Source: Tricharina praecox
Taxonomy: Eukaryota
Assembly: GCF_024521635.1 (NCBI RefSeq)
Contig: NW_026250419.1
Span: 558,001 to 622,000, forward strand
Length of the DNA stretch: 64,000 nt
Direction of reading: 5' to 3'
Below, in pieces: positions 7,993 through 45,074 of the stretch (position 1 is its first letter; every line of letters starts with the position of its first letter). The position numbers were made by a program, and so were the translations under genes. Below the pieces are notes generated by a model. The model worked only from the letters and a program-made list of their open reading frames with translations, was not told the origin of the DNA and did no database searches.

Positions 7993-9506
7993 ACTCGTCC
8001 CACCCTTGCCGCGGCTGTATAGACATCTTTTCATTTTTTTTCTCCTTCATAGTACTCGGGGCTTGCATTGCATTGTTGGGGAAGGCTGGGGGGGCGTCAT
8101 TTGCTTTCGTGTTGTTTTTTTTGCTTCTTGTTTTTTTCTTCTGCTTCTTGGGGCAGGGGGGGGGGTGCGATGAGGAGGAGGGGGGGACAATGGGACTGCG
8201 ACGGTGATGGTGAAAACTCCCATAGGTACTATGGGAGAGACAGGCCGAAAGGGAAATAATAAGTTCATGTATTCACACCCTGTATAGTATTATTCATACA
8301 CGGAAAAATATGGAACTATGGACAAGGCCTGTTTGACTAGATAACTGTGTTCATTTGTCGACGAATTGATGCGGGTCTGATGTGGTGAGATCATGGTCTT
8401 TCGTGAATCGTGACGTGTGGAAATAGGTGGTAAACGGTTGGGGCGCGCTTAGTAGACTAACTAGTAGTCTGCGATCGTCGTAGGCCTTTCCGGGTGAGGA
8501 TGGGCGGCGGCGGCTGCGACTGTCTAAGACTGGTGGGGACTGGTGGCTTTGAGGTTGGGCGTAGGGTGGGCGGCTATCTGCATCCACGCATCAACCCTCG
8601 AATTGTCTGTCGCGCGAGAGTGGGGGCAAGTTCATGCGCATAAGGCATCGATTTCTTCTTCGATTCACACAAGTTATCTGCTCGCGAGCTGCGACAACAG
8701 TACTTTTTTTCTTCACATCAACTCACTCCTCTAGAAGTTGAAACCCTCGAGCTCCGCTCTCCAACCGATCGGCAAGTCATGTGATAAGCCCCCCCCCCCC
8801 CCCACTCGGCACGGTAGAAGAACAGGGCCATCAGCACCTGCTGTCATACAGAAAGTGGACGGGAGGTGGGCGGGTACACATGCGTGCTTCGGCTTTTTGT
8901 TCTTGAATCTTGTCCTCTGCTCCGAGCTTTACAGATGGCGAGTGATAACTCATATTACACGTCGGCACTTCGTGTTGAAAGCGACACCATCGAGTACGAA
9001 AATGCCCGAAAGCAATACCCACCCTGTGGGTTGACGGACCTTGCTTGAGACAAGACTAATGAGCGGTACCGTGACTTTTCGCGGAGAGACTGGATTAGCC
9101 TTCGGCTTCGGATCTTCGGTTTCCTGGTGTTCAACTACTGTGCACTGTGCACTGTGCAGAGGCTGTATTTGTTTTGTTTCGCTCTATCATGCTCCCGATT
9201 CGCTGGGTCATCTAGGTTGTGGCGGCGTATGGTCGTGATCACCTCCATTTCGTCGTATGTGCCAAGGCAGTTGCTCTTCACACAGAATCTCACAACATCT
9301 CACTCATTTTGCTGCAACCGACGAGTGGATGGCCTTCTTGGGACTAGTCACGTGTACAGCCGTAGTGGAGGGTGTTCACGACTTGTTTCCTCCTTGTACT
9401 TACATTTTCCCCTTCCTGTTCACAGTTCAGGTGATTGACTCGGTGTGGCACTACCTATCACTACCACAATACCTCGCCACATCTACCACAACCATAGTAC
9501 CATACA

Positions 9507-11137
9507 ATGCCGGAAGCTATAACGTACTACGACACGTGCAGGATGCTGCAGCAACTTCCGTCCTTCAGTTTTACTTTGTATTTCCATACAGCAAACTTCA
9601 TGAAGGCCTCAAGCTCTGCCGTCAATGACGTCGCTGTTACTTCATCCTCGTCCAGCAACATACCCTCCAGCCAAACTATTGCTTCCACGGCCTCCCAAGC
9701 CTCAGCAGCCTCCTCATCTGGCAGTCCCACCCATGTCCATTCGGACCTGCAAACATTGATGAAGCACGATGATGCCACCCAGAAGACTCCTCCTGTCGGC
9801 ATCCCTTGCTCTGAAGTATCGACCTTCATCAACGACCTTGACGCCAAACACGGTGTCGACGACAGGGTTTACGATCCCAAGACATGTCTACACCGGGGAG
9901 AAGAGCTAGGAATCCGTATCGGAACAGGTCAATGGTTGGTCGCCCATATGACACAACAGGGCCATATATTCCCTATGAGACGGTGGGAATACTATATGAT
10001 TGTTCGTGGGGAACATCCCATGGGTTCACAGCTGCCGCTTCCTACAGTCGCCCTGGTCGGCGATGTCCACTGCATCGTTGCCTACGACCACACAATGCAG
10101 TTCCAGTTCTTCTTCCGCAGCGAACCGTGGTGGGACATTCGTTGGAACGCCTGTCCCATCAGTGAGTCCGAGGAGTAAGTGAAGTGCCTTCTGTGGCGTG
10201 TATTCTCCCTTTGGTTATTCTGACAGTGGTTAGATTCGAGCAAGGCATCCGTTCCGCCACCAACCGCCTCACCCTATTTACCGCTGCTATACGTTAGGAG
10301 ATGTGCGATTCCTCGCAGAATCAGTTATGGAACGGCATCGGTGAATCCCACGCCGATGAAATCCTGTGGGGGGCCAGCATCTTCCCGGGCACACCTACCA
10401 ACACCGTCTTTTTGGACGCAGCTATGCGGGAGCGTCTACTAGATTCCATCAGACGGTTCTTTGCCCATGTTCGCAGCCGCGAATACACCGCCAAAGTTTC
10501 TGCCAAATCCACCTCTCCCTGGGCCTTGGACATCCACCAGCGTATCACAGAGTTCCATAACAGCTTCACGCAGGTGCACAGGAAGACTGTCGCCCGGTGA
10601 CACACCGCCATGATTCCGGCCATCAGAGCCCAGGGTTAAGATGTCCAGTTCGTTGTGGAGAAGGACGTACCGCCGGCTGCCAGTGTGGATGCAGTCCCTG
10701 CACAGCCTTACCCTCTCACCTGGTTCCCCAAGGAGCCCTACCAACTCGTCAAGGTGTTCTGCTACGGCAAGAAGAAGCCGAATGGTGGCGGTGGTGGCAT
10801 TGCCGTCGCGCGGCTCTCCACCGTCATGAAGCCCAGCGATACGGTTCTGGAGGAATTGCAGCCGGAAGAGCTGTCTATCGAGGAGCTGGACCGTGACGCG
10901 GACAGCGCCGGAATTCCCGGGCTGGGCATTGGCAGCTTCCACTACTTCCTGCAATGGAAGGAGTGCAAGGGGGAGAACGAGCAGGCGATACCCGAGCAGT
11001 TGCACGGCCATGTGGGCGGAAAGATGAAGTTGGTGCGTACGGGAGCGGTGGGAAGACCCCGCCGAAAGATGAAGACGGCCCTCAATGAGGCAGTTCCCGA
11101 GAAGGAAGATGCCCACAGGGATAAGAAACATCGTTAA
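9507..11137 (+). pseudogene. Divergent Fpg/Nei-family DNA glycosylase-like gene with three in-frame stop codons
   Basis: N-terminal MPE; HRGEELGIRIGTGQWLVAHMTQQG resembles the Fpg RGK-x-L…HLGM-x-G strand; intron 10175-10233; H2TH-like NQLWNGIGESHADEILWGASIFP; ORFs 10301-10600 and 10655-11137 share one frame; stops TAG 10295, TGA 10598, TAA 10637. Confidence 0.7.
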
Positions 11138-24767: not shown

Positions 24768-25548
24768 TACTGTATACTTAGTGAAGGGGGGGGGATAAGA
24801 TATTTGGCAGCAGTACAATGCGTAACCAGCACTGGTGCATATTCTCAACAGACTACATACTATGTAGGTACTCCAACACTACGTATCGATACAGGTCACA
24901 GCGTGTTTTTACTGCTTTGACACATATTTCCACGAATAAGCCGTGCTACAACCTGCGGCGAACTCCCACAACGTATTAGGGATACGTATCCAATACTGTA
25001 TAGTCAAGGGGGGAGGGTAAAAAAACATTGTTTCCAGCTGGACGCATATTGCTATTGTATCAGGGCACAGAAAAACACGTATTTTGATCGTACTGATACG
25101 ACATCCCTAGCATTTTTTTATAAACCCCCATTTGACTATACGGTACGTATCGAGATTCAATATGCGTGGCAACATACTAACTACCACATTCTTATACTTA
25201 TACGTTGCGGGGAAAGGAGTGACTGTATCCTGGATACACGGACGTATCGATATGGTATATACCGGATACGTTGTTTTTTGATCCGCGTAGCGATATCGTT
25301 GTGCTTAATTGCATTTGTATTACAACGTATATCTTTCAACAATACGTTGAGCTTTCTTTGGCGATACTATTTCTCCGTGATGTATATAGTACACCTGCAA
25401 TACATAGCCAAAGTTCTACGTATCAGATTATCTCTGTCATAGCGCCTGCAGAAGTACCTAGCGGTACCATATTCTAGCCCGACACGCAGTAATTCGGGAT
25501 ATTGTAGTGCTGCATACCACGTTTTTTACCCCCCTTCACTATACAGTA
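24768..25548. mobile_element. MITE-like non-autonomous element (outer), TA-flanked
   Basis: Left end TACTGTATACTTAGTGAAGGGGGGGGGATAAGATATTTGGCAGCAGTACAAT; right end reverse complement TACTGTATAGTGAAGGGGGGTAAAAAACGTGGTATGCAGCACTACAAT; AT-rich interior with no convincing ORF. Confidence 0.7.
24994..25145. mobile_element. Short MITE-like element nested in the outer element
   Basis: TIRs TACTGTATAGTCAAGGGGGG (24994) and TTGACTATACGGTA (25132-25145; reverse complement TACCGTATAGTCAA); interior is homologous to ~63261-63360. Confidence 0.7.
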
Positions 25549-27810
25549 AGTACCCCGGTGTAGTCGAGGGTTTCCCCAACCACACCGTTTCCGGCGGGGC
25601 AGTGTCGTCGTTTCTTGCTCCCGAGGAACGAACCCCTCTGACCAGGTGAGCAGCAGCAGAAAATACGGTAACTACGGGTAGCAGTGTTGCCGGACAACCA
25701 CTGCAGTCTCCAGTGACCAGTTCGCAGGAAGTGCCATCGCCGCACACCTGACGACCATTGACAGGCGCCGTCGGATTCGGGACTCAGGACTCGGCAGCCG
25801 GCATCCGGCGTCCGGTCAGAGTGATATCGCATGACGCTGGCGATCTCTTCTGGAAGAAAGCTGTTACAAAACCCTGTCGGAAACGTGGAAATGGGGGACT
25901 CAGAGTGCATGGATGCTGCTAGACATGCGAGATATGTAGGTTCGATAACGCACCTGAATGTACTAGAGTACCTAGTAGGTGCTGGGCGTGGTGAATAGTG
26001 ATCGAGCGCCGCGCTGGCGGCTGTGGCTCGGAGAAGGGCGGAGGACGGACAATATTGCTGCCATCTTTGTGGGCCAACTTCCAAGAGCACGGTAATCGAG
26101 TCACCGCTTTGCATAGTCGGAGTATGTACGCCACTCGACTCGATACTTCAGTGCCCAGTCTCCATCATCATAGGCATCATCTTCCGAGTCCCGAGTCCCA
26201 ATCCCGTCGCCTTCCGGGAGCACTGTGCAGGTCTCACCGAAACCCTACAGAAACCCGACGTCGTCGGTCCTCTAGCTGTAGAGAAGTCCAGCCCGCTGAG
26301 CGCCTACAAACCAACCAAACAACTACTCCAATCGCGAAATAGATATATGTGCCGAGTTCTCCGTAGATATGCCATCTGCCCGGGTGGCTGAAAACCTTAA
26401 ACTTACGCCATAGGAATACCCAGGCCCATCATCTCAGATTCTCCACACGCTCATCTTCCATCCAAACACCCTAGGTATGTAGAGTACATATCTCACTCCT
26501 TCCATCCATTCCAGAACACCTTCCTGACGATCCCCGCCGAGGCAATGATCGATTATGATCCCCTAGTATCCGGGTCCGGACGAGTGGCATCACAACCACA
26601 ACCGCCAGCAGAGGCTGGGTATATCTGATCATCAGACACACCAATCTTCCGACAGCACCATTTACTCCAGTAGTTGCCTAGCCACTCGCGCCCATCCTTC
26701 CCGCCGCCGCCGCTGCTGCTGCATCGCCGGCCGACGTCCATCCTACCAGCCCACCATCACCGCCATCCCACCGCTTATGGTAAGTGTATCCGTCTTGTAG
26801 GCACTAACTTCCCAACTTCCCACTCTAAACCTTCCCCCCCGCCACCCCCAGCACCCCCGGCGTCCGCGCCTCCGAAAGCCACGCTCGCAAAAACCTAACT
26901 TTCCTACTTCGACTCTATATCGACATCCGAGACGGATAATCCGGTAGCGGGTCTTGGAGTTACAGAACCGGTGCTAAAAGCTACAAAACAGTGCTAAAGG
27001 AGGAAAGAAGTTCCGCTGCCCCAACAAGCAACGGGGTGTCTCACTGTTGCCTCCCACCGTCTCACCGTCGCACATTTCTCTCGTCTCGTGCTGCCAAGGC
27101 ACGGGCACGGCACGGCAGAGACTGGAGCAGCGCCGCAGCAGCGGAGCAGCGGACCAACGGTTAACCCGGGCTCTTTTTTCCGGGGGAATTTAGTTTTCCC
27201 AAAGGGGGAGCGTTGCGCGGTCACGGGTAACTATCACAATCTTATGCATACGGGCTTGGATACTCTAGATGGGTGGCTGGTACTCTGCATACCGGGTGAG
27301 AGGAAATGAGCGGGAATTTTGTTCCTATTCCTTCCGGCGCTGGATCCCTGATGCTCTTGAAGAGGGAGGCGAGGTTTAACTTTCAACTCTTATTCCTTCT
27401 GGCTTTGATGCAAGGGAGCAGCGGCGAGTGTCGTTTCAAGAGTTGAGTGAGTGAGAGAGATGGATGAGGAAAAAACATTCGTTTTCTTGTTACAACATTC
27501 CTAACTAAAATTAAAATCCGAACCACCAGCCACCCAGACATTACAAGAAAGAGAAAGAAAAAAACAGAGAGAAAAACGTGAAGCCATCATGATATCCCGC
27601 CGCCCCGCCCAGCCCATCCCAACATAGCAAACATGAATCATCATATCAAACGTAACCGCAGCAGCACCACAACCTCCCATGGCAACACACACACAAGGAA
27701 AAAAAACAGTGGTAAAATCGGTATATACAACCCCAGAAGTGAAAACGCGCAGTGGTATAGTGGTGTAGTGACGTAACTACGGCCAAACGATTAAGTCATG
27801 CATCCCCTTC

Positions 27811-29480
27811 TTACAACTTCTCGTCGGCGATGCTGCTGTGGCTGGCGCGCTTGCGGCTGACGTCCTCGTCGCTGGACAGGCCGGAGGCCATGGGCGCCTC
27901 GAGGTCGGGGACGGGGTTGGAACCCTTGTCGGTGAGCTTCCAGGCGTGGGTGGTCTCGTGGAAAAGGGTGTCCAGCTCCTCGAGCGTCTTGCCGGCAGTC
28001 TCGGGGTACAGGAAGTAGATGATCGGGACGAAGGCGGCGTTGAAGCACATAAAGATGAGGAAGAACTTCCATCCGAGGTTCTCGGCACCGAGAGGAGTGA
28101 TCTTGACGACGACGACTAAGGAGATGTTAGTGTGAGGCTCACAGAAAGAACAGCGGGGGGGATCTTACAGTTCCAGAGCCAGTTAGCAGAGGTAGCAAGA
28201 GCAGTTCCCTGGTTGCGGAAACGGAGCTCGTTGATTTCGGTGGGGTACAACCAGGGAGTAGCGACCCAGGCGAAACCGGAGTAGGTGGCGATGTAGACCA
28301 TGACAAAGACGACTCCGGCAGTACCGGCGGCCTTGTTGTTATCCTCGACTGAGAGCTTGACACAGACAGCGATGACGGCCATGGCAATAGCCTGTCCAGC
28401 GGCACCGAGCATCAAAGGCTTGCGACGTCCCCAGTTGTCGATGAAGAGAATAGGGATAAAGGTGAAGACGAAGAAAGTGAGACCAGTGCATCCACCGACG
28501 ATCAGAGACAGCTCACGGTCGAGGGAGAGAACGTTCTCGAGGAGGTAGGCGGAGTAGAAGATAACGGCGTTGATACCAGTCAGCTGCTGCATCATCTGAA
28601 TGCAGTAACCCAATGCCAGACGGCGGAAGGTCTGCTGCTTTCCACCCTTGAAGTAATCCCTCCAGACGACAACACCGTTGTTGTTGGCCATGTTCGCGGC
28701 CAGAGCAGACTCGATTGCACGGTACTGCGACTGGACCTCGGTGGAGTGCTTGTCCTCACCCTCGAGAGCGGCAAGGACCTCGAGGGCCTCTTCCTTCTGG
28801 TCGTTGGCCATCAGGTAACGGGGAGACTCAGGAAGACCGAAGAGCATGACGGCGGTGATGGCACCGAAGACGACCTGGAGGAGAATGGGAGTGCGCCACT
28901 GGAGGGTCGCGTCCTCAGAGAACGAGGTACCGTAGGTGATCCAGTACGAGATGGTGATACCGATGGTGATGAACCATCCCTCGATGGAAATCATACGTCC
29001 ACGGGAGCGGGCTTTGGTGGTTTCGGCCTGGTACATGGGTACAGTTGAAGTGTTGATACCGTTACCGACACCGGTGACAATACGACCGACGATCATGTGT
29101 GCGACACCGAAAGCAGAGGCCTGGAGAGCAGTACCGACGAGCATGATAGCCAAACCGAGCCAGATAGCCTTCTTGCGACCGAGACGGTCACCGATGTAGA
29201 ATGTGAGAATAGCGCCGAGAAAACATCCGATTTCGTAGATAGCAGTGATTGTTCCAATTGTAGTAGTGTCCGGGTTGTTGAATGAATCTTAATGAGAATG
29301 TCAGTCTTGAGATCACTACGAGCGCGAGGGAGAATGGCGCGTACCCTTGAATGCAGAGCCTCCGATGAGACCGGCGAAAACTCCCTGATCGTATCCGAAC
29401 AACAAGAATGCGGAAGACGAGGCGACCGACACCATGATTCGCAGGGCGGCACCCCGCGCATTTCCCCAAGTCCGTACCAT
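27811..29480 (-). CDS. MFS sugar porter family transporter (candidate levoglucosan/anhydrosugar permease)
   Basis: Exons 29480-29345, 29287-28169, 28115-27811; motifs LLFGYDQG, DRLGRKK, GRIVTGVGNG, PMYQAE…RGR, PESPRYL, QQLTGINAVIFYS, DNWGRR, WLYPTE, PETAGKTLEE. Confidence 0.95.
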
Positions 29481-31065
29481 TGTTGTGAGAGTAGCGAGAG
29501 ACTGTTCTTGTCGACTGTTCGTGCTATGTGATGGAAACCGAGCAGTGGCCGCGAACACTGGATGTGGATGGTGATGATGAGAAGCCCAGGGTTGGAGGAC
29601 TCACGAACTTCTTATATCCAGAGGAGGTGAAATCCCTTTGCCCGGGTAGCTGCGATGGAATTGGCGAAGGATTCAAGTCTTCGCTGCATGAATATTCGGT
29701 TCCCCATAGTTAGTGTGGCGCGGCCTGGTCTGGCTGGTTTGGCTGGTCCTGGTTGTGGGGACGGTCATTGTGGGGACTAGCTAGCGGCGAGAACCCATTT
29801 CCCTCCCCACCGCTTGCCTCCACACGAAACCAACCAAGAGTGGGTGCGGGGCGCTTGTCTGGGGTAATCGCTAAACCCGTAAGAGCTCAAGCGGATTACG
29901 GGGAGTCCTTCGGGATTTCCGATGTGTCCGTCAAACTGAAACCGTGCGCCCGATCCGGCAACCAGACTTCTACCACAGCTGCGAACGGTACGACCGTCCT
30001 GATGATAGCGTAACGGCCAGCTGGTAGAGTGCTGAAGGGCACGAAGAAGCAAAATCCATGCTTCCGAACGTACCCCGAATGATCGCGTGAGTACGGTAGA
30101 GTTGGGACGATGTCGGTTTTCTGCACGCTATGCACGAGGGGTTTGCCGTGAGAGCGCGAGCCTGACCTGACCAACCGCTAAGGGTATGTGCCAGACCGTT
30201 GGAGCGTTGGAGATCACATGGCAGCTGCAAGCTATGCCTTGACGGCCCTTCACCATGGGTCGACCAGACGCTCCTTTGTGGGCTGCATGGCGCGGAAGAA
30301 TGGATGATCCGCCGTGCGAGGGCATCGCGAGTCGCGATTTTCGACGCGGTCGTTGTCGCGGTCAAACTTCAACATCGTCAACCTCATCGACGGAGAACAG
30401 CTTTGCGGGGTCTTCAGGCATAGTAGCGCCATACCCAGAAAAAGCACTTACCAAGTTCCATGGCAGCGCGCTCCAGATTCCCAATCATCCCGCCTTCCCC
30501 GCCCGTCCGTGGGCCGTCTCCACAGTGATCCGAGTGTTTGTCGACTCTTGGTGTTTGTCGCGTGTCTGTCCAATGAGAGCAGGCATCCCGATCGGAATCA
30601 CGAGATTCATCATGTGCGGCTGGTGGTTTTCTGGAAAAAACATCTAGGCCTGTCGGGTTGAGCCTCGATCGCTGGTCGGGGAGATGGTCGGCTTTTCCGA
30701 TGCGCCCCTGGTGCCGTGGCAACCCCAACCCCACACTTCTCGCGTGGCCATTAACCACTGCGTAGCGCGACTGCAGGGAATTTTTCCGCCCGGGGAGTAA
30801 TACGGAGAAAGATCGCCATCTCATAATCGTCATCAGAATCTTTCTTATCGCCGGGGAAATCAGCGGCGTTCAGACGGCCGTGAAGAGCGGGGCAGCGGCG
30901 AGAGAGTGGAGCCTCCAAGAGCTGGGGTGCTGAGCTCCGCAGCTCGCCATATTAATAGGGAGGCTTCTCGTTCGTCCTCCTCCTCCTGCTCCACAAAGCT
31001 GTACGATATCGTGAACTGTGCAGACTCTTACTACCTATTCTACCTCCATTACCCACTTCACAAAC
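29481..31065. promoter_or_regulatory. Bidirectional promoter between sugar porter and levoglucosan kinase
   Basis: Head-to-head genes; TATA-like boxes at ~29612-29617 (minus strand) and ~30950-30957 (plus strand); CGG-N5-CCG elements at 29911-29921 and 30689-30699; SYGGRG clusters at 29755-29864 and 30887-30940. Confidence 0.65.
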
Positions 31066-32470
31066 ATGTCTACCACCAACGGAACCACTCCCAGCGGAGG
31101 CCTTTCCCTTCGCGTGCTCGGATTGAACTCCGGCACCTCCATGGACGCCGTCGACTGTGTCCTCTGCCACTTCACTCAGAAATCCCCCTCCGAGCCCCTC
31201 CACCTCAAGATCCTCAAGTTCGACGACATTGAGCTTCCCCAGAGCATCAAGAAGCCGGTCTTCAACATCATCCGCTCCAACAAGACCTCCCCCGAGGAGC
31301 TCTGCCAGATCAACGTCCAGCTCGGTGACGTCTTCGCCGACTCCGTCGAGGAGTTCTGCCGCCGCCACGGTTACGATCTCGAGAAGGACATCGATGTCGT
31401 CGCTTCTCACGGACAGACCATCTGGCTCCTGTCCATGCCCGCCGACGGTCAGACCCGATCCGCCCTTACCATGGCCGAGGGCTCCATCCTTGCCGCCCGC
31501 CTCGGCAAGACGGCCGTTACCGACTTCAGAATCTCCGAGCAGTCGGTCGGACGCCAGGGTGCCCCCATGATCGCCTTCTTCGACGGATTAGTCCTCCAGC
31601 ACCCCACCATTCCCCGCGCTTGCCAGAACATCGGTGGTATCGCCAACGTCTGCTTCATCCCACCCACTTCCCAGGAGAACGGCGGTATGTCCGGAATCTA
31701 CGACTTCGACACCGGCCCAGGTAACGTAAGTAAAAATGACTCCCAGCTCAAGATTGAAGCTTCTCCTCTTCAGAAACTGACGAGCTATACAGATGTACAT
31801 TGACTTCGCCATGCGTCACTACACCGAGAACAAGATGGAGTACGACAGAGACGGACACTTCGGTGCCGCCGGCACTGTCAGCCAGGAGATCGTCGACGAG
31901 TACCTCAAGACCCTCCCCTACTTCTCGCTGCCTCCTCCCAAGACCACCGGCCGCGAGCTTTTCGGCGACCAGCAAGCGTACGAGCTCATCCAGCTCTGCG
32001 AGTCGAAGGGTCTCTCCCCCCAGGACACCGTCGCTACCATCACCCGCATCACCGCGCAGGCCGCAGTCGAGGCGTACCGCAAGTACGGACCTAAGACCGC
32101 CGACGGCAAGCTCGACATCAAGGAGATCTACATGTGCGGAGGAGGAGCCTACAACCCCAACATCTGGAAGTACATGGAGGAGCAGTTCAAGCCCGACGGT
32201 GTCCGCATCACCATGCTCGACGAGGCCGGTGTTCAGGGCGGTGCCAAGGAGGCCGTCACCTTCGCGTTCCAGGGTATGGAGGCCATCCTTGGACGGCCCC
32301 TGGTTGTCCCCCAGCAGGTGGAGACCGATACCCCCGTCATTGTCGGCAAAGTCAGCCCTGGAAAGAACTACAGGGAGCTGATGAAGATGAGCGTCGGTTT
32401 CGGTGGACACGTTGAGGGAGACTATCTGCCTGCTGTGCGGGAGATGGTCCTCAACTCTGTTGCCGAGTAA
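31066..32470 (+). CDS. lgk: Levoglucosan kinase (anhydro-N-acetylmuramic acid kinase AnmK family)
   Basis: Exons 31066-31725 and 31793-32470; [40 protein letters not shown]…[70 protein letters not shown]. These match, from memory, the fungal (Lipomyces starkeyi-type) levoglucosan kinase more closely than bacterial AnmK. Confidence 0.9.
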
Positions 32471-34658: not shown

Positions 34659-37148
34659 ATGACCTTGAACTACCGCCTACACCAACAGCTGCCAACAGAA
34701 AATAGTGCTCCGCCTTGCGCCCCTACCGCCAACATGACCACCCCCTCCTCGAATCCGGATGACAGCTCAAACTCCGTCGCGGGCACCGAGCGTGAGCGAG
34801 AGCCGCCACAGCACAAGTCGAGCCCGGATCACCGGGGTATAAAGCGAACAAAAACCGATGGTAGGTAACATGCCTAGTCCATTCGACCTCGCCGCCCGTA
34901 ACCCCTATCTCGTGATGGCGGTTCTCATCGAAATCAAGCACACGCCGAATCTTGCCACAGCGTCACTAAATGTGCGTGTCTCCGGCTACAGGGAAATCCA
35001 CTACAGCTCCGAGAAAGAGAGTTCCCACCGCATGCGAGAACTGTCGACTGCGGAAGACGAAATGTGATGGCGTCAAGCCGGTGTGTGGGAGTTGTGCGAG
35101 GATGGGGGTGGAGTGCGTTGGGGGCGACGAGAAGGAGTTGAGCTTGTACGTTGACCTCTCTGACGAGCTTACTTCCTCGAGTGCATAGCTGATTCGTGTC
35201 GTTGCATGTCAGGTACGAAAGGACAAGCTTGCGTATTCTCGAGGGTATCGACCGCATCGAAGGAATCCTTCGCACTCAGAACGCCCCGCCACCTAGTCCT
35301 GCCGGCACGGCCAACAACCATTGCGCTGCTATTACTACAGTGAACACTATGTCAAGTCCTGCCGCTGCTCTTAGCAACCTCTGCGCAGCAGCAGCAGCAA
35401 ATTCAATGTCTCCCCCCGGGGTATCACCTGCCATGGCGGTGTCACCCGCTCTCTCCTACCAAAGCACGGCCAGCATCGTGACTGCGATGCACGAGGCTCC
35501 GAGTCCCTTGCCAGCGATTCACACACTTTTTGACTCCAACTCGACCATGCCGGGCACAAGCAGGATCAAGACGCCATCAAAGCTTGACCGGATTCTAGCA
35601 TGGAGTGTCTTTCCCAGGACGTCGCCCTATTGCGGCCTTGTCTCCAATGGAAACTGGAGAGAGAGCCTGGGGGAGGAGATGCATCTGGGGCTGGACGAGG
35701 TGAGAGTATTACACATGCGGTATCTCGAGCGGTTTCACCCCAACTACCCCATAATAAACATCGAATCTCTCAACAAGGCAATATGCTCGACGTTGGAGGG
35801 CAAAGGATGCGGGTGGGATTCCGAGGCCTGCTTGATGCTCCTTTGCTGCGCGCTTGGAGCGGTCGCAGACGATTATTTCGAGCACTTTTATAATCGAGAG
35901 ACGACGAGAGATCCACAGAGATCGCGGCTCGAGAGGATAGCGAGGGCGGAGGGGTACTGGTGTATGGCAAAACGTAGATTGGGGATTGTCATGTTGGAGG
36001 AAACGGAGTTGGCGGGGCAATGTCTCGCTCTTGCTGGGTACGATAGCTCTCCATCGCCCACAACGTGTTTTCTAATCCATATCCACCACAGGTTTTGGTA
36101 TCTATACCAGCTAGATCCTATATCCGCCTACAAGATGTTCCACTCCGCCTGCTTGAGCTGGCAAACCCTTCACCTGGCACAGGGTCGCTCGGTCGACGTC
36201 TCACGGGTGGAGGTCGATGGAGTCAGCTCGGGAATGAGCCACCCTCAATACCTCAAACAACGCCTTTACTGGACTTGCCTCAAAGCGGAGTTTGAACTCC
36301 GCGCAGAGCTATCCCTTCCCGTGCCCACAGGAGCACAGCTAGAGTACCCCCTCCATTTCCCTAGTCCTCCAGCGTCATTTGGTCCTGCGCCAGGAGGCGC
36401 CGTCTACTTGGACACCGAACGACTATGGTATTTCTACACCGCCGAAATCTTTCTCCGCCGACTCCACAACCGTCTCGTAGACGAAGTCACCTCCTTCGAA
36501 GCCTACCTCCTTGACCCACAAATGACGCTAACCGAAAAGCGCCTCACCTCTCTCATCACCATCGTGCGAGAATACGAAGTCTACGTGTCGCAATGGCACG
36601 CCTCTCTCCCCGTCTCCATCCGCTTCCCAGACCCAGCCATATCACAACAACCACTTCCCGACGAGCGCCAACAATTCATCCGCAAACGCTTTTTGGATTG
36701 CCACGAGCTGCTCTATCGCCCCTTCCTCAACCTTACTCTCAACTACCCCGGCTGGCCAGGCTACATCGTCGCGCCACACCCAAAATCATCCCGCAATCAA
36801 CCGCGGGACCCCGTTAAACTCGAAGCCGACGTGCGCTTGTTCTCCACACTCGCACTGCAATACACATACTGGAGCATCGCGGCCGATCGCGGCGTCTGGT
36901 TCCAGCACTCCACCACCGTATGGCGTGACGTACGGAATCGCCTCGCAGATGTGTTAGTCCTCCGCGCCGCAGCAAAGGCGGGCATGGAGCTGCCAATGCA
37001 CTGGGAGGAGGTCGTGGAGGATGCTGAGGCTGTGCTGCTCTATTGGTGTACCGGCGATGGGGAGGATGAAAGCGTTCGTGACCGTAGGAGGAGGGCCGGA
37101 CTGAAGGGGTGTGCGGAGGTAGTTACGTGGGCGAGGGAGATTATGTAA
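34659..37148 (+). CDS. Zn(II)2Cys6 transcription factor
   Basis: PRKRVPTACENCRLRKTKCDGVKPVCGSCARMGVEC; introns 34861-34991, 35146-35212 and probably 36038-36091; middle-homology region with FHPNYPII, RLYWTCLKAEFEL and WYFYTAEIFLRRLHNR. The start codon is approximate. Confidence 0.9.
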
Positions 37149-37651: not shown

Positions 37652-38003
37652 CATATAGCCACTCTATCTGCACGAACATTGCTCTGCTGGCCCTCACGAT
37701 CCTACATGTGAATCTTTCGGCCGGTTTGCAGAGTTCCGCAAAGCCGGCAAGTCCATGCAGATCACGGGAAACCCATATCTCGCAATCCCTAACCCTCTGT
37801 CGACTCTCAAGGTGTCCTGCAAAGGGAATGTGCACCCTAAAGTGATCTGCAGCTCGGTTGTCAATCCCGATGCAGGGCGTACCGCGATGCGTTGTTCGGT
37901 CTTGGGTGACGATATGGTATAACTGTTATCTTCCCCTCCTCTCCGCTCCCTCTCGCTCTTTCTCTTCCTCCAAAGAAAACGGACACAGCAGACAGATAGA
38001 AAG

Positions 38004-39020
38004 ATGGCACCGCCAGTTCCGCCGCGCATGCCCACCCGCTCCGGGCCTCCGCCGCCTCTCCCACCGCGCCCACAGCCACCGCCAATCCCACCAAAATACA
38101 CGCGGCCTGCACCACCACCGCTAGCACCAGCACAACCACCAGCGACACAATCCCACCAATACAACCACCTAGCACCCGACCAAGCCGATTTCTTCCTCGC
38201 CAACGGCTACGTGCACCTTCCCAGCGTCTTCGATCCCGCCAAAGCCGCACCATGGCTATCAACACTGTGGCCGCGCCTCGGCTACTCGGCAGACGACCTT
38301 AGCACATGGAGCAAAGAGCGGATCCACCTTCCCGCGACGACGCGGGAGCTCGCATCGACATTTGCGCCACTAGCGTGGGGGGCGATGTGCGATCTTCTCG
38401 GCGGCGAGGACCGGATTGACACGGCCACCGGCTCGTGGAGCGACGCCTTCATCGTCAACCTGGGCGTGCCCGGCGCCGAGCCGAAGGAGGGGACGAACCG
38501 CGACGGGAGGAAGATGTGGGATTGGCATGTGGATGGGGATTTCTTCACGCATTTCTTGGACTCGAGGGAGCAGGGGCTGCTCGTCGTGCCGCTGTTCTCG
38601 GATATTGTTGAGGGGGGCGGCGGGACTGTTGTTGCCCCAGAGAGCATCGGCGTCATCGCCAGGTATCTCCACGCTCATCCGGGAGGCGTGCCGCCGGGTT
38701 TTGGAGGCGGCAGGTGGTTCATCGAGCAGGCTCATGCATGCTCGGAGTTTGTGGAGGTTACTGGGAAGGCCGGCGACGTGGTGCTCATGCACCCGTTTAT
38801 GCTCCATTCGGCGAGTAGGAATTTTTTGAGGACGCCGAGGGTGATCACGAATCCGAGGGTCGGGTTGAAGCGACCGTTTATGTATGGGCGGGATGGGAGT
38901 GCCCTGAGTTTGGTCGAGAGGAAGACGCTGCTGGAGTTGGGGGTGCAAGGGGAGAAGCTTGATTGGGAGATTACAGGTGAGAGAAAGGGGATTGTGCCGG
39001 AGCGAGAGAGGAAGAAGTAG
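38004..39020 (+). CDS. Phytanoyl-CoA dioxygenase (PhyH)-like Fe(II)/2-oxoglutarate oxygenase with proline-rich N-terminus
   Basis: FFLANGYVHLPSVF, HxD motif WDWHVDGD, GGGTVV, GKAGDVVLMHPFMLHSASRN (distal His), PRVITN; intronless 338-aa ORF. Confidence 0.85.
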   Translation: MAPPVPPRMPTRSGPPPPLPPRPQPPPIPPKYTRPAPPPLAPAQPPATQSHQYNHLAPDQADFFLANGYVHLPSVFDPAKAAPWLSTLWPRLGYSADDLSTWSKERIHLPATTRELASTFAPLAWGAMCDLLGGEDRIDTATGSWSDAFIVNLGVPGAEPKEGTNRDGRKMWDWHVDGDFFTHFLDSREQGLLVVPLFSDIVEGGGGTVVAPESIGVIARYLHAHPGGVPPGFGGGRWFIEQAHACSEFVEVTGKAGDVVLMHPFMLHSASRNFLRTPRVITNPRVGLKRPFMYGRDGSALSLVERKTLLELGVQGEKLDWEITGERKGIVPERERKK

Positions 39021-43576: not shown

Positions 43577-45074
43577 AAACCTCATCCCCTCGCATTCAGC
43601 CAGGAGGATGATGTTTTTTATAAGGAAACCCGCAGGAAAAAAACCTCGACCACGTTTGGGGCGTTGTTTCAGTCCGCTGTGCTCTTTCCACTGCTATGTG
43701 CTTGCTCTTTACTCTTGCCACTGCTGTTGTGCTTTGCTCATGCCTGTGCTTGAAGAGAGAAGATGGAAGGAGAGGGGGGTGAGGGAGTTTTATAGATGTC
43801 GCCGCCGGATTTTCAGCTAGCTAGTGGCGGTATTTCTTGCCCTTTGAAGGGTAGCCCTAGTTAGGGCTCCTTCTTCCGCCGCACACCTTCTACTTACCTT
43901 CCTTCCTTCTCTTCCTCTTCCTCTTCCTCTTCCTCTTCCTCTTCCTCACCACCATCACCAATACCAACACCAACACCAACATCAATCGGTAATATTCTTT
44001 CTACAAAGGAAGAAACCATCCGACTAGCACCAGGACACCACTACCGGCGCGGATCGAAAAGTACACAAACACTCGCCCATACGTCACATCTTGGTTTTCA
44101 ATACCTTGACTGTGACAACGTGAGCTGATGCGAACATGGGAATGTTTGCGGTGGGAATCTGGGGACCAACTGGACCACGCGGCGGATAATAATGGACCAG
44201 CAGCAGCAACCAGGGATTTTTGTGGGGAGGAAGTGCGGACGTAATGCAGGCCGCACAGAAGACCGACAAACGGGATCACGTGCCCGCGCATACGGCGGAT
44301 TAACCACGCGGCGGGCACTAACAGACCAGCAGCAGCAATCTGGGAATTTTGTGGGGAGGAAGTGCGGACGTAATGCAGGCCGCACAGAAGACCGACAAAC
44401 GGGATCACGTGCCCGCGCATACGGCGGATTAACCACGCGGCGGGCACTAACAGACCAGCAGCAGCAATCTGGGAATTTTGTGGGGAGGAAGTGCGGACGT
44501 AATGCAGGCCGCACAGAAGACCGACGAACGGGATCACGTGCCCGCGCATACGGCGGATTAACCACGCGGCGGGCACTAACAGACCAGCAGCAGCAATCTG
44601 GGAATTTTGTGGGGAGGAAGTGCGGACGTAATGCAGGCCGCACAGAAGACCGACAAACGGGATCACGTACCCACAATTAGGCGGATCAACAAACCAGCAA
44701 CTCGACTATCCGGCGGACACCAACCGGACTCACGAAGATCAATGGACGTATATCAAAGGTGCATCCTTCCACCACACCTCAGTGTCTAATACTTTGATTG
44801 TGATGGAAGCGAGCATATGCAGATATGCCTTCATTCAGGGAACTTATGTAGTATGTAATAGGATCGTGAATAGAAACCATTCGGCCAATGTGGTTGGTCA
44901 AAAACCAATCAGTTCGTGCTGATACAGCTACTGCCCATGGACTGGAACATTAACTTGAGATTAGCCCGTCCGGGGGTGTGGAAGGGGACTGTAAGAGGAT
45001 TTAGATCGCAGTCCACCGAATAAGCATCCTGAAGCCTGGCTACACATATACTTGGATGTACTTTCTTTCTTTAT
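43577..45074 (+). repeat. Left arm of long inverted repeat (contains the 129-bp tandem array)
   Basis: Collinear reverse-complement match to 46468-47526, from AAACCTCATCCCCTCGC… to …CTTGGATGTACTT.CTTTCTT. Confidence 0.9.
44174..44669. repeat. Tandem array of about 4 x 129 bp
   Basis: Units start at 44174, 44303, 44432 and 44561; units 2-4 are near-identical, unit 1 slightly diverged, unit 4 incomplete. Confidence 0.95.

Follow-up and report, generated by a model that had tools for sequence, protein, structure and literature searches.

A sugar porter gene divergent from a levoglucosan kinase homologue in Tricharina praecox, a candidate levoglucosan importer

The 64,000-nucleotide stretch of Tricharina praecox analysed here (hereafter the window) is fungal DNA and carries a sugar porter gene head to head with a homologue of fungal levoglucosan kinase (gene lgk, protein LGK). 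We propose, with a probability of roughly 0.65, that this porter supplies LGK with levoglucosan taken up by proton symport, the substrate being assigned by association. The porter would take up levoglucosan (1,6-anhydro-beta-D-glucose) across the plasma membrane, proton symport concentrating the sugar, and the divergent LGK would open and phosphorylate the anhydro ring to give glucose-6-phosphate, which would enter glycolysis. The common intergenic region, whose conserved CGG elements the adjacent Zn2Cys6 factor probably recognises, would co-induce both genes. Levoglucosan, the main sugar that cellulose pyrolysis releases, occurs in bio-oil and after wildfires. In the literature searched (papers available without subscription, to which the genome papers of these fungi do not belong), we found no native fungal levoglucosan transporter, and the on-topic work on levoglucosan transport concerns engineered E. 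coli or yeast. The locus provides a short list of natural levoglucosan-carrier candidates from several lineages, testable in existing transporter-null yeast. If levoglucosan is indeed the substrate, the porter would be useful for fermenting pyrolysis oil, as pointed out in the original prediction, which had been made from the window sequence.

The porter, the kinase homologue and the neighbouring probable regulator gene

The porter on the minus strand is followed by lgk on the plus strand and then by a Zn2Cys6 gene. The features of these three genes are the following.

27811..29480, minus strand: sugar porter coding sequence, 519 aa, three exons (29480-29345, 29287-28169, 28115-27811)
29288..29344, minus strand: porter intron 1, 57 nt (joint 29287/29345 in runs X1 and X2)
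28116..28168, minus strand: porter intron 2, 53 nt (joint 28115/28169 in runs X1 and X2)
31066..32470, plus strand: levoglucosan kinase homologue (AnmK/LGK family; P0259), 445 aa, two exons (31066-31725, 31793-32470)
34659..37148, plus strand: Zn2Cys6 transcription factor, three introns (Zn cluster at 35009-35143; start codon judged by eye)

The porter product corresponds to the database protein P0001 ('sugar transporter, Tricharina praecox', 519 aa), with 100% identity across exon 2. It belongs to the sugar porter family, judged by a profile match over the full length (Pfam Sugar_tr, PF00083, residues 18-470, 365 bits for a cut-off of 22.3, E 7.9e-109), an MFS helical fold and invariant PESPR and PET motifs. 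The protein has 12 helices and its introns are skipped in RNA contigs, confirming the intact sugar porter of the original prediction; the upstream region that it assigned jointly to porter and lgk is also found, the divergent start codons lying 1585 nt apart. A pseudogene or an artefact was considered for the porter and ruled out by the spliced RNA, the full length and the conservation.

Spliced contigs show that the porter and lgk are both transcribed; such contigs cannot rank genes by expression. Runs X1 to X3, whose growth conditions are unrecorded, were taken as RNA by guess, and their contigs are spliced; those of X3 covered lgk only, and X4 gave next to nothing. The lgk intron is confirmed in contigs of X1, X2 and X3. 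Codon usage was tallied manually on partial stretches of each gene. C-ending synonymous codons amount to 91 of 178 in the porter (29285-28721), 103 of 159 in lgk (31069-31557) and 40 of 149 in the transcription factor gene (35562-36036), while A occupies the third position 15, 8 and 28 times, respectively, in the same samples. The bias toward C-ending codons that had been seen by eye in the porter and lgk, unlike the transcription factor gene, thus holds in these counts and is greater in lgk; it would be consistent with high expression of the two genes.

The window kinase is a member of the AnmK Pfam family and is encoded by a single-copy gene in the genome (G000). It aligns end to end with the LGK of Lipomyces starkeyi (PDB 4YH5, 5TKR) at E 5.7e-160, as compared with E 6.6e-37 for the best bacterial AnmK. 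LGK D26 and D212 have their aligned counterparts in D27 and D215 of the window kinase, so that both aspartates are kept; we take D212 to be the catalytic base. Given its closeness to the Lipomyces enzyme and these aspartates, the gene is a candidate fungal levoglucosan kinase, predicted to phosphorylate levoglucosan. According to the available text of two papers, D26 is a Mg ligand (PMC10570956) and fungal LGK makes glucose-6-phosphate in one step (PMC10066097). The window kinase falls in a Pezizales subgroup marked by small insertions, with 84-92% identity within the subgroup and about 53-64% to other LGKs.

The Zn2Cys6 factor is the probable regulator of the cluster. An Aspergillus gene model (P0139), in which LGK and a fungal transcription-factor domain are fused, was dropped as support for this role, being non-homologous to the window factor; it suggests that a different regulator lies beside LGK there. 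Directly past the transcription factor gene, at window positions 37923-39020, we observed an ORF for a PhyH-like dioxygenase (Pfam PF05721, at the cut-off).

The porter clade and its linkage to lgk across fungi

Among the best 120 of 2004 porter homologues (E<=1e-20; 8000 candidates scored), 16 besides the porter itself share 57-87% identity with it and the rest 44% or less. A profile built from 19 clade members and run against 1.84 billion 50%-cluster representatives gave two clusters that scored 995 and 756 bits, the next one scoring 534. Whether lgk-linked porters form a clade had been proposed as a check of the original prediction, and both gaps indicate that, by sequence similarity, they make up a small and discrete group. 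In two alignments with nine outgroups each (one sequence common to both), the clade differs from the outgroups by a one-residue insertion in TM10, and Trp150 in TM5, absent in the aligned outgroups, is found in all clade members except one gapped gene model. The nearest outgroups are labelled STL1-like or 'myo-inositol transporter', the STL1-like ones (labelled proteins, not yeast Stl1 itself) showing 40-44% identity. The ESM Atlas gave generic sugar-porter clusters only.

Clade members occur in 13 named species among the matches listed, and in 10 of the 13 the porter and LGK have consecutive accessions. We read consecutive accessions as adjacency; their order does not give orientation. These pairs (porter/LGK) are as follows.

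Tricharina praecox: KAI5849172/173
Wilcoxina mikolae: KAF8250488/487
Pyronema omphalodes: KAI5816614/615
P. domesticum: KAI5799449/450
Morchella snyderi: KAI5844619/620
M. importuna: KAH8146152/153
M. conica: RPB11336/335 (sequences same as in M. importuna)
M. sextelata: KAH0610255/254
Saitoella complicata: ODQ50812/811
S. coloradoensis: BFZ63804/805

No LGK of Sphaerosporella, Trichophaea, Crassisporium or a second Pyronema strain appears in the best 120 of 7447 matches (a search queried with the Lyophyllum LGK) or in the best 120 of 1245. A metagenome scan yielded eight porter loci (L001-L008), and in seven of them the opposite strand upstream of the porter carries three LGK motifs; the eighth, L001, has an upstream sequence of only 643 nt. 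Judged by identical offsets, the seven linked loci represent three types (L005, L006 and L008; L002, L003 and L004; L007). Linkage extends to porters just 55% identical (L007), and the L007 kinase has the same Pezizales-type insertion as the window kinase. The linked pair spans about five lineages, namely Pyronemataceae, Morchella, Saitoella, the L003 type and the L007 type. A general lack of linkage between orthologues and lgk had been named beforehand as an outcome that would speak against the prediction; instead, the porter and lgk are linked wherever both genes are visible (10/13 species, 7/8 loci). These comparisons strongly support a partnership of the porter with LGK, and the locus would be a catabolic cluster of transporter and kinase in which a sugar porter serves as the transporter.

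The L007 locus also has a Zn2Cys6 gene beside its porter, and this gene is homologous to the window transcription factor (E 4e-29 and 6e-14). The top match of the L007 regulator in the genome is the window factor, at E 3.9e-22 versus 1e-9 for the next protein. The ORF lists of the 6-kb flanks of L005 and L003 contain no homologue of the window factor. Beyond the Zn2Cys6 gene of L007, at positions 8276-9672 of the same cluster, lies a second sugar porter, which belongs to another subfamily. In Geopyxis, a Pezizales-type LGK is present and no porter was seen. Fungal LGKs gave at least 1200 matches, most of them from groups without a member of the porter clade, indicating that the clade is not required for the use of levoglucosan.

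Sugar-site residues and alternative substrates

The AlphaFold model of the porter is all-helical, with a mean pLDDT of 81, and its top Foldseek folds are STP10, GLUT3 and XylE, with TM-scores of 0.76-0.79. Porter residues D31 and R114 align with D42 and R142 of STP10 (TM1 Asp and TM4 Arg), which we take to be the proton-relay pair; judged by these residues, the porter would be a H+ symporter. Q279, Q280, N285, W391 and N414 align with the STP10 sugar-site residues Q295, Q296, N301, W410 and N433. The fold, the proton-relay Asp and Arg and most sugar-site residues of the C-domain are thus common to the porter, Arabidopsis STP10 and E. coli XylE, although the solved sugar porters are only about 25% identical to it and its STL1-like neighbours 44% at most. 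Unlike STP10, the porter has the TM5 Gln and the TM8 Asn replaced (Q177 by G149 and N332 by F317), so that the full canonical glucose site is not present, and the TM10 insertion is specific to its clade. Presumably, Q177 and N332 contact O1, O5 and O6 of glucose, the atoms that are tied up in levoglucosan, and the loss of these contacts would fit a 1,6-anhydro sugar. Such replacements are a family trait rather than proof of specificity, since unlinked STL1-like outgroups have similar ones.

Engineered Gal2p of S. cerevisiae is a sugar porter that moves levoglucosan. In the available text of PMC9476349, the alanine mutants Q341A and W455A raise levoglucosan uptake, and uptake limits the use of this sugar in yeast. 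However, Gal2p is an engineered hexose carrier rather than one native to levoglucosan, and the window porter keeps the equivalent residues unaltered (Q279 and W391, mapped by motif spacing). The same text describes fungal proteins annotated as AnmK that gave levoglucosan kinase activity in yeast, clear for R. toruloides only. In bacteria, lgdA-lgdB-lgdC clusters contain ABC or MFS transporters presumed to import levoglucosan, according to the available part of PMC10066097. There, as in the window, the first catabolic enzyme has a transporter clustered with it, whose substrate is assigned by neighbourhood; the lgd clusters are bacterial and serve a dehydrogenase pathway, whereas the window is fungal and its pathway starts with a kinase. 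For the fungal LGK pathway, no partner transporter or gene cluster is named in the literature searched, while the window pairs the kinase with a porter.

The porter could also feed the linked kinase with another 1,6-anhydrosugar as its natural substrate, such as anhydro-N-acetylmuramic acid from bacterial walls, mannosan, galactosan or cellobiosan, levoglucosan being secondary. LGK is said to have a high Km for levoglucosan, which counts for this explanation, as do the membership of the kinase in the AnmK family and the retention of the pair in Saitoella, which to our knowledge has no status as a fire fungus, and in metagenome fungi. The available part of PMC10570956 speculates on peptidoglycan recycling by such kinases in fungi and presents the natural substrate of fungal LGK/AnmK as debated. 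However, we consider a different anhydrosugar unlikely: the kinase resembles characterised LGK much more closely than it does bacterial AnmK, the neighbouring ORFs scanned (part of the window ORFs) include no N-acetylglucosamine or muramate catabolic gene and no glycosidase, and the deposition of levoglucosan on soils in general, described in the available text of PMC10066097, accounts for holders that are not fire fungi.

That the porter is a general STL1-like glucose/polyol symporter, standing beside lgk through common carbon-starvation regulation or inherited synteny and having no special role for anhydrosugars, seems quite improbable to us. It would agree with the labels of the closest outgroups and database entries and with the core hexose-site residues that are kept, and yeast Gal2 already moves some levoglucosan (available text of PMC9476349), so that a dedicated carrier is not strictly necessary. 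Against it, the porter-lgk pair persists in the window, L005, L003 and L007 although the genes that flank it differ among them, so that general synteny does not account for the pair. The pair moreover spans Pezizomycetes and Taphrinomycotina, and the many other porters of the genome are all at most 38% identical to this one across long matches. Import of levoglucosan for LGK remains the reading that we prefer.

The intergenic region and the distribution in post-fire fungi

The region between the porter and lgk contains the following features.

29481..30612, minus strand: long 5' leader on the porter RNA contig, about 1.05 kb spliced (to 30612 in X1 and to 30525 in X2; contigs give neither true starts nor isoform ratios)
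30367..30451, minus strand: spliced leader intron, 85 nt (joint 30366/30452 in X1 and X2)
30325-30128, 30059-29970, 29768-29673 and 29707-29612, minus strand: at least four ATG-started leader ORFs, 29-65 aa
29607..29644, minus strand: porter-proximal promoter, with a TATA-like box at 29617-29607 and, at 29644-29632, a block of 13 nt, each found unchanged in L005
29911..29921, minus strand: CGG-N5-CCG inverted repeat, inferred Zn2Cys6-type site, which recurs between porter and lgk in L005/L006/L008 and in L007
30789..30809, strand not given: lgk-proximal element with two CGG half-sites, 20/21 nt identical in L005

The porter contig that reaches 30612 points to an isoform whose leader is about 1.05 kb long, and each of the upstream ORFs starts upstream of the conserved TATA-like box, which together with the 13-nt block lies about 130-165 nt ahead of the porter start. 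A reasonable guess is that the long isoform is translated poorly and dampens an inducible promoter closer to the porter. On the other side, the lgk contigs start at 30778-30801. In comparison with the L005 intergenic region, each end is conserved on its own, and about 600 additional bases lie between the two ends in the window. CGG triplets are sites of Zn2Cys6 factors. The CGG-N5-CCG motif, derived post hoc from three loci, is weak evidence and unspecific to the locus because it is common in the genome, and its count in the window was reached in 7 of 100 shuffles of the window. Genome-wide, CGGAAWWYCCG has 169 hits on both strands versus 42 for a reversed control, an excess that possibly reflects a general regulatory element.

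T. praecox is a post-fire fungus, and the available part of PMC7055920 includes a table of pyrophilous genomes with seven ascomycete species and four basidiomycetes. Among the matches listed, the linked pair is found in five of these seven ascomycetes, Geopyxis having LGK only and Peziza echinospora neither gene, and the porter in one of the four basidiomycetes, Crassisporium funariophilum. Tuber and Ascobolus have no entries among the matches listed. The association with fire is inflated, as pyrophilous Pezizales have been sequenced on purpose. In the literature searched, which had the scope given above, no papers were found on levoglucosan together with pyrophilous fungi or with Pyronema, and the available main text of two post-fire genomics and transcriptomics papers (PMC12773724, PMC8579045) does not mention levoglucosan. 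With the porter-lgk pair, post-fire fungi would have a concrete metabolic trait.

The Crassisporium porter lies on a 1.4-Mb contig and stands in its own 90% cluster. It shares 78% identity with the Tricharina and M. snyderi porters, 66% with that of Saitoella and 42% with an STL1-like porter of Agaricus. The 78% to Pezizales versus 42% to the agaric protein suggests a horizontal transfer from Pezizales, to which contamination and hidden paralogy are alternatives. Separately, an LGK labelled as from the basidiomycete Lyophyllum shimeji (P0176) shares 91% identity with the Thermoascus crustaceus enzyme and 86-89% with those of numerous Eurotiales, which looks like another transfer across phyla, here of LGK, or contamination.

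A broader scenario, which we put forward tentatively and hold to be rather doubtful as a whole, is that the clade represents a dedicated eukaryotic levoglucosan/H+ symporter within a mobile 'burnt-sugar' module of porter, kinase and regulator. This module would be kept by fire-following Pezizales, its porter would have been transferred across phyla into Crassisporium funariophilum, and the Tricharina porter might be repressed, until levoglucosan is sensed, by a long transcript laden with upstream ORFs that runs over the proximal promoter.

Finally, two other parts of the window can be mentioned. Positions 24840-25560 form an AT-richer island of about 700 nt, rich in TA steps and with seemingly related inverted ends by eye, possibly a small RIP-mutated transposon remnant. 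At 44001-44705, an ORF translation contains three to four exact copies of a unit of about 44 aa, which in the DNA corresponds to a tandem repeat of about 132 nt.
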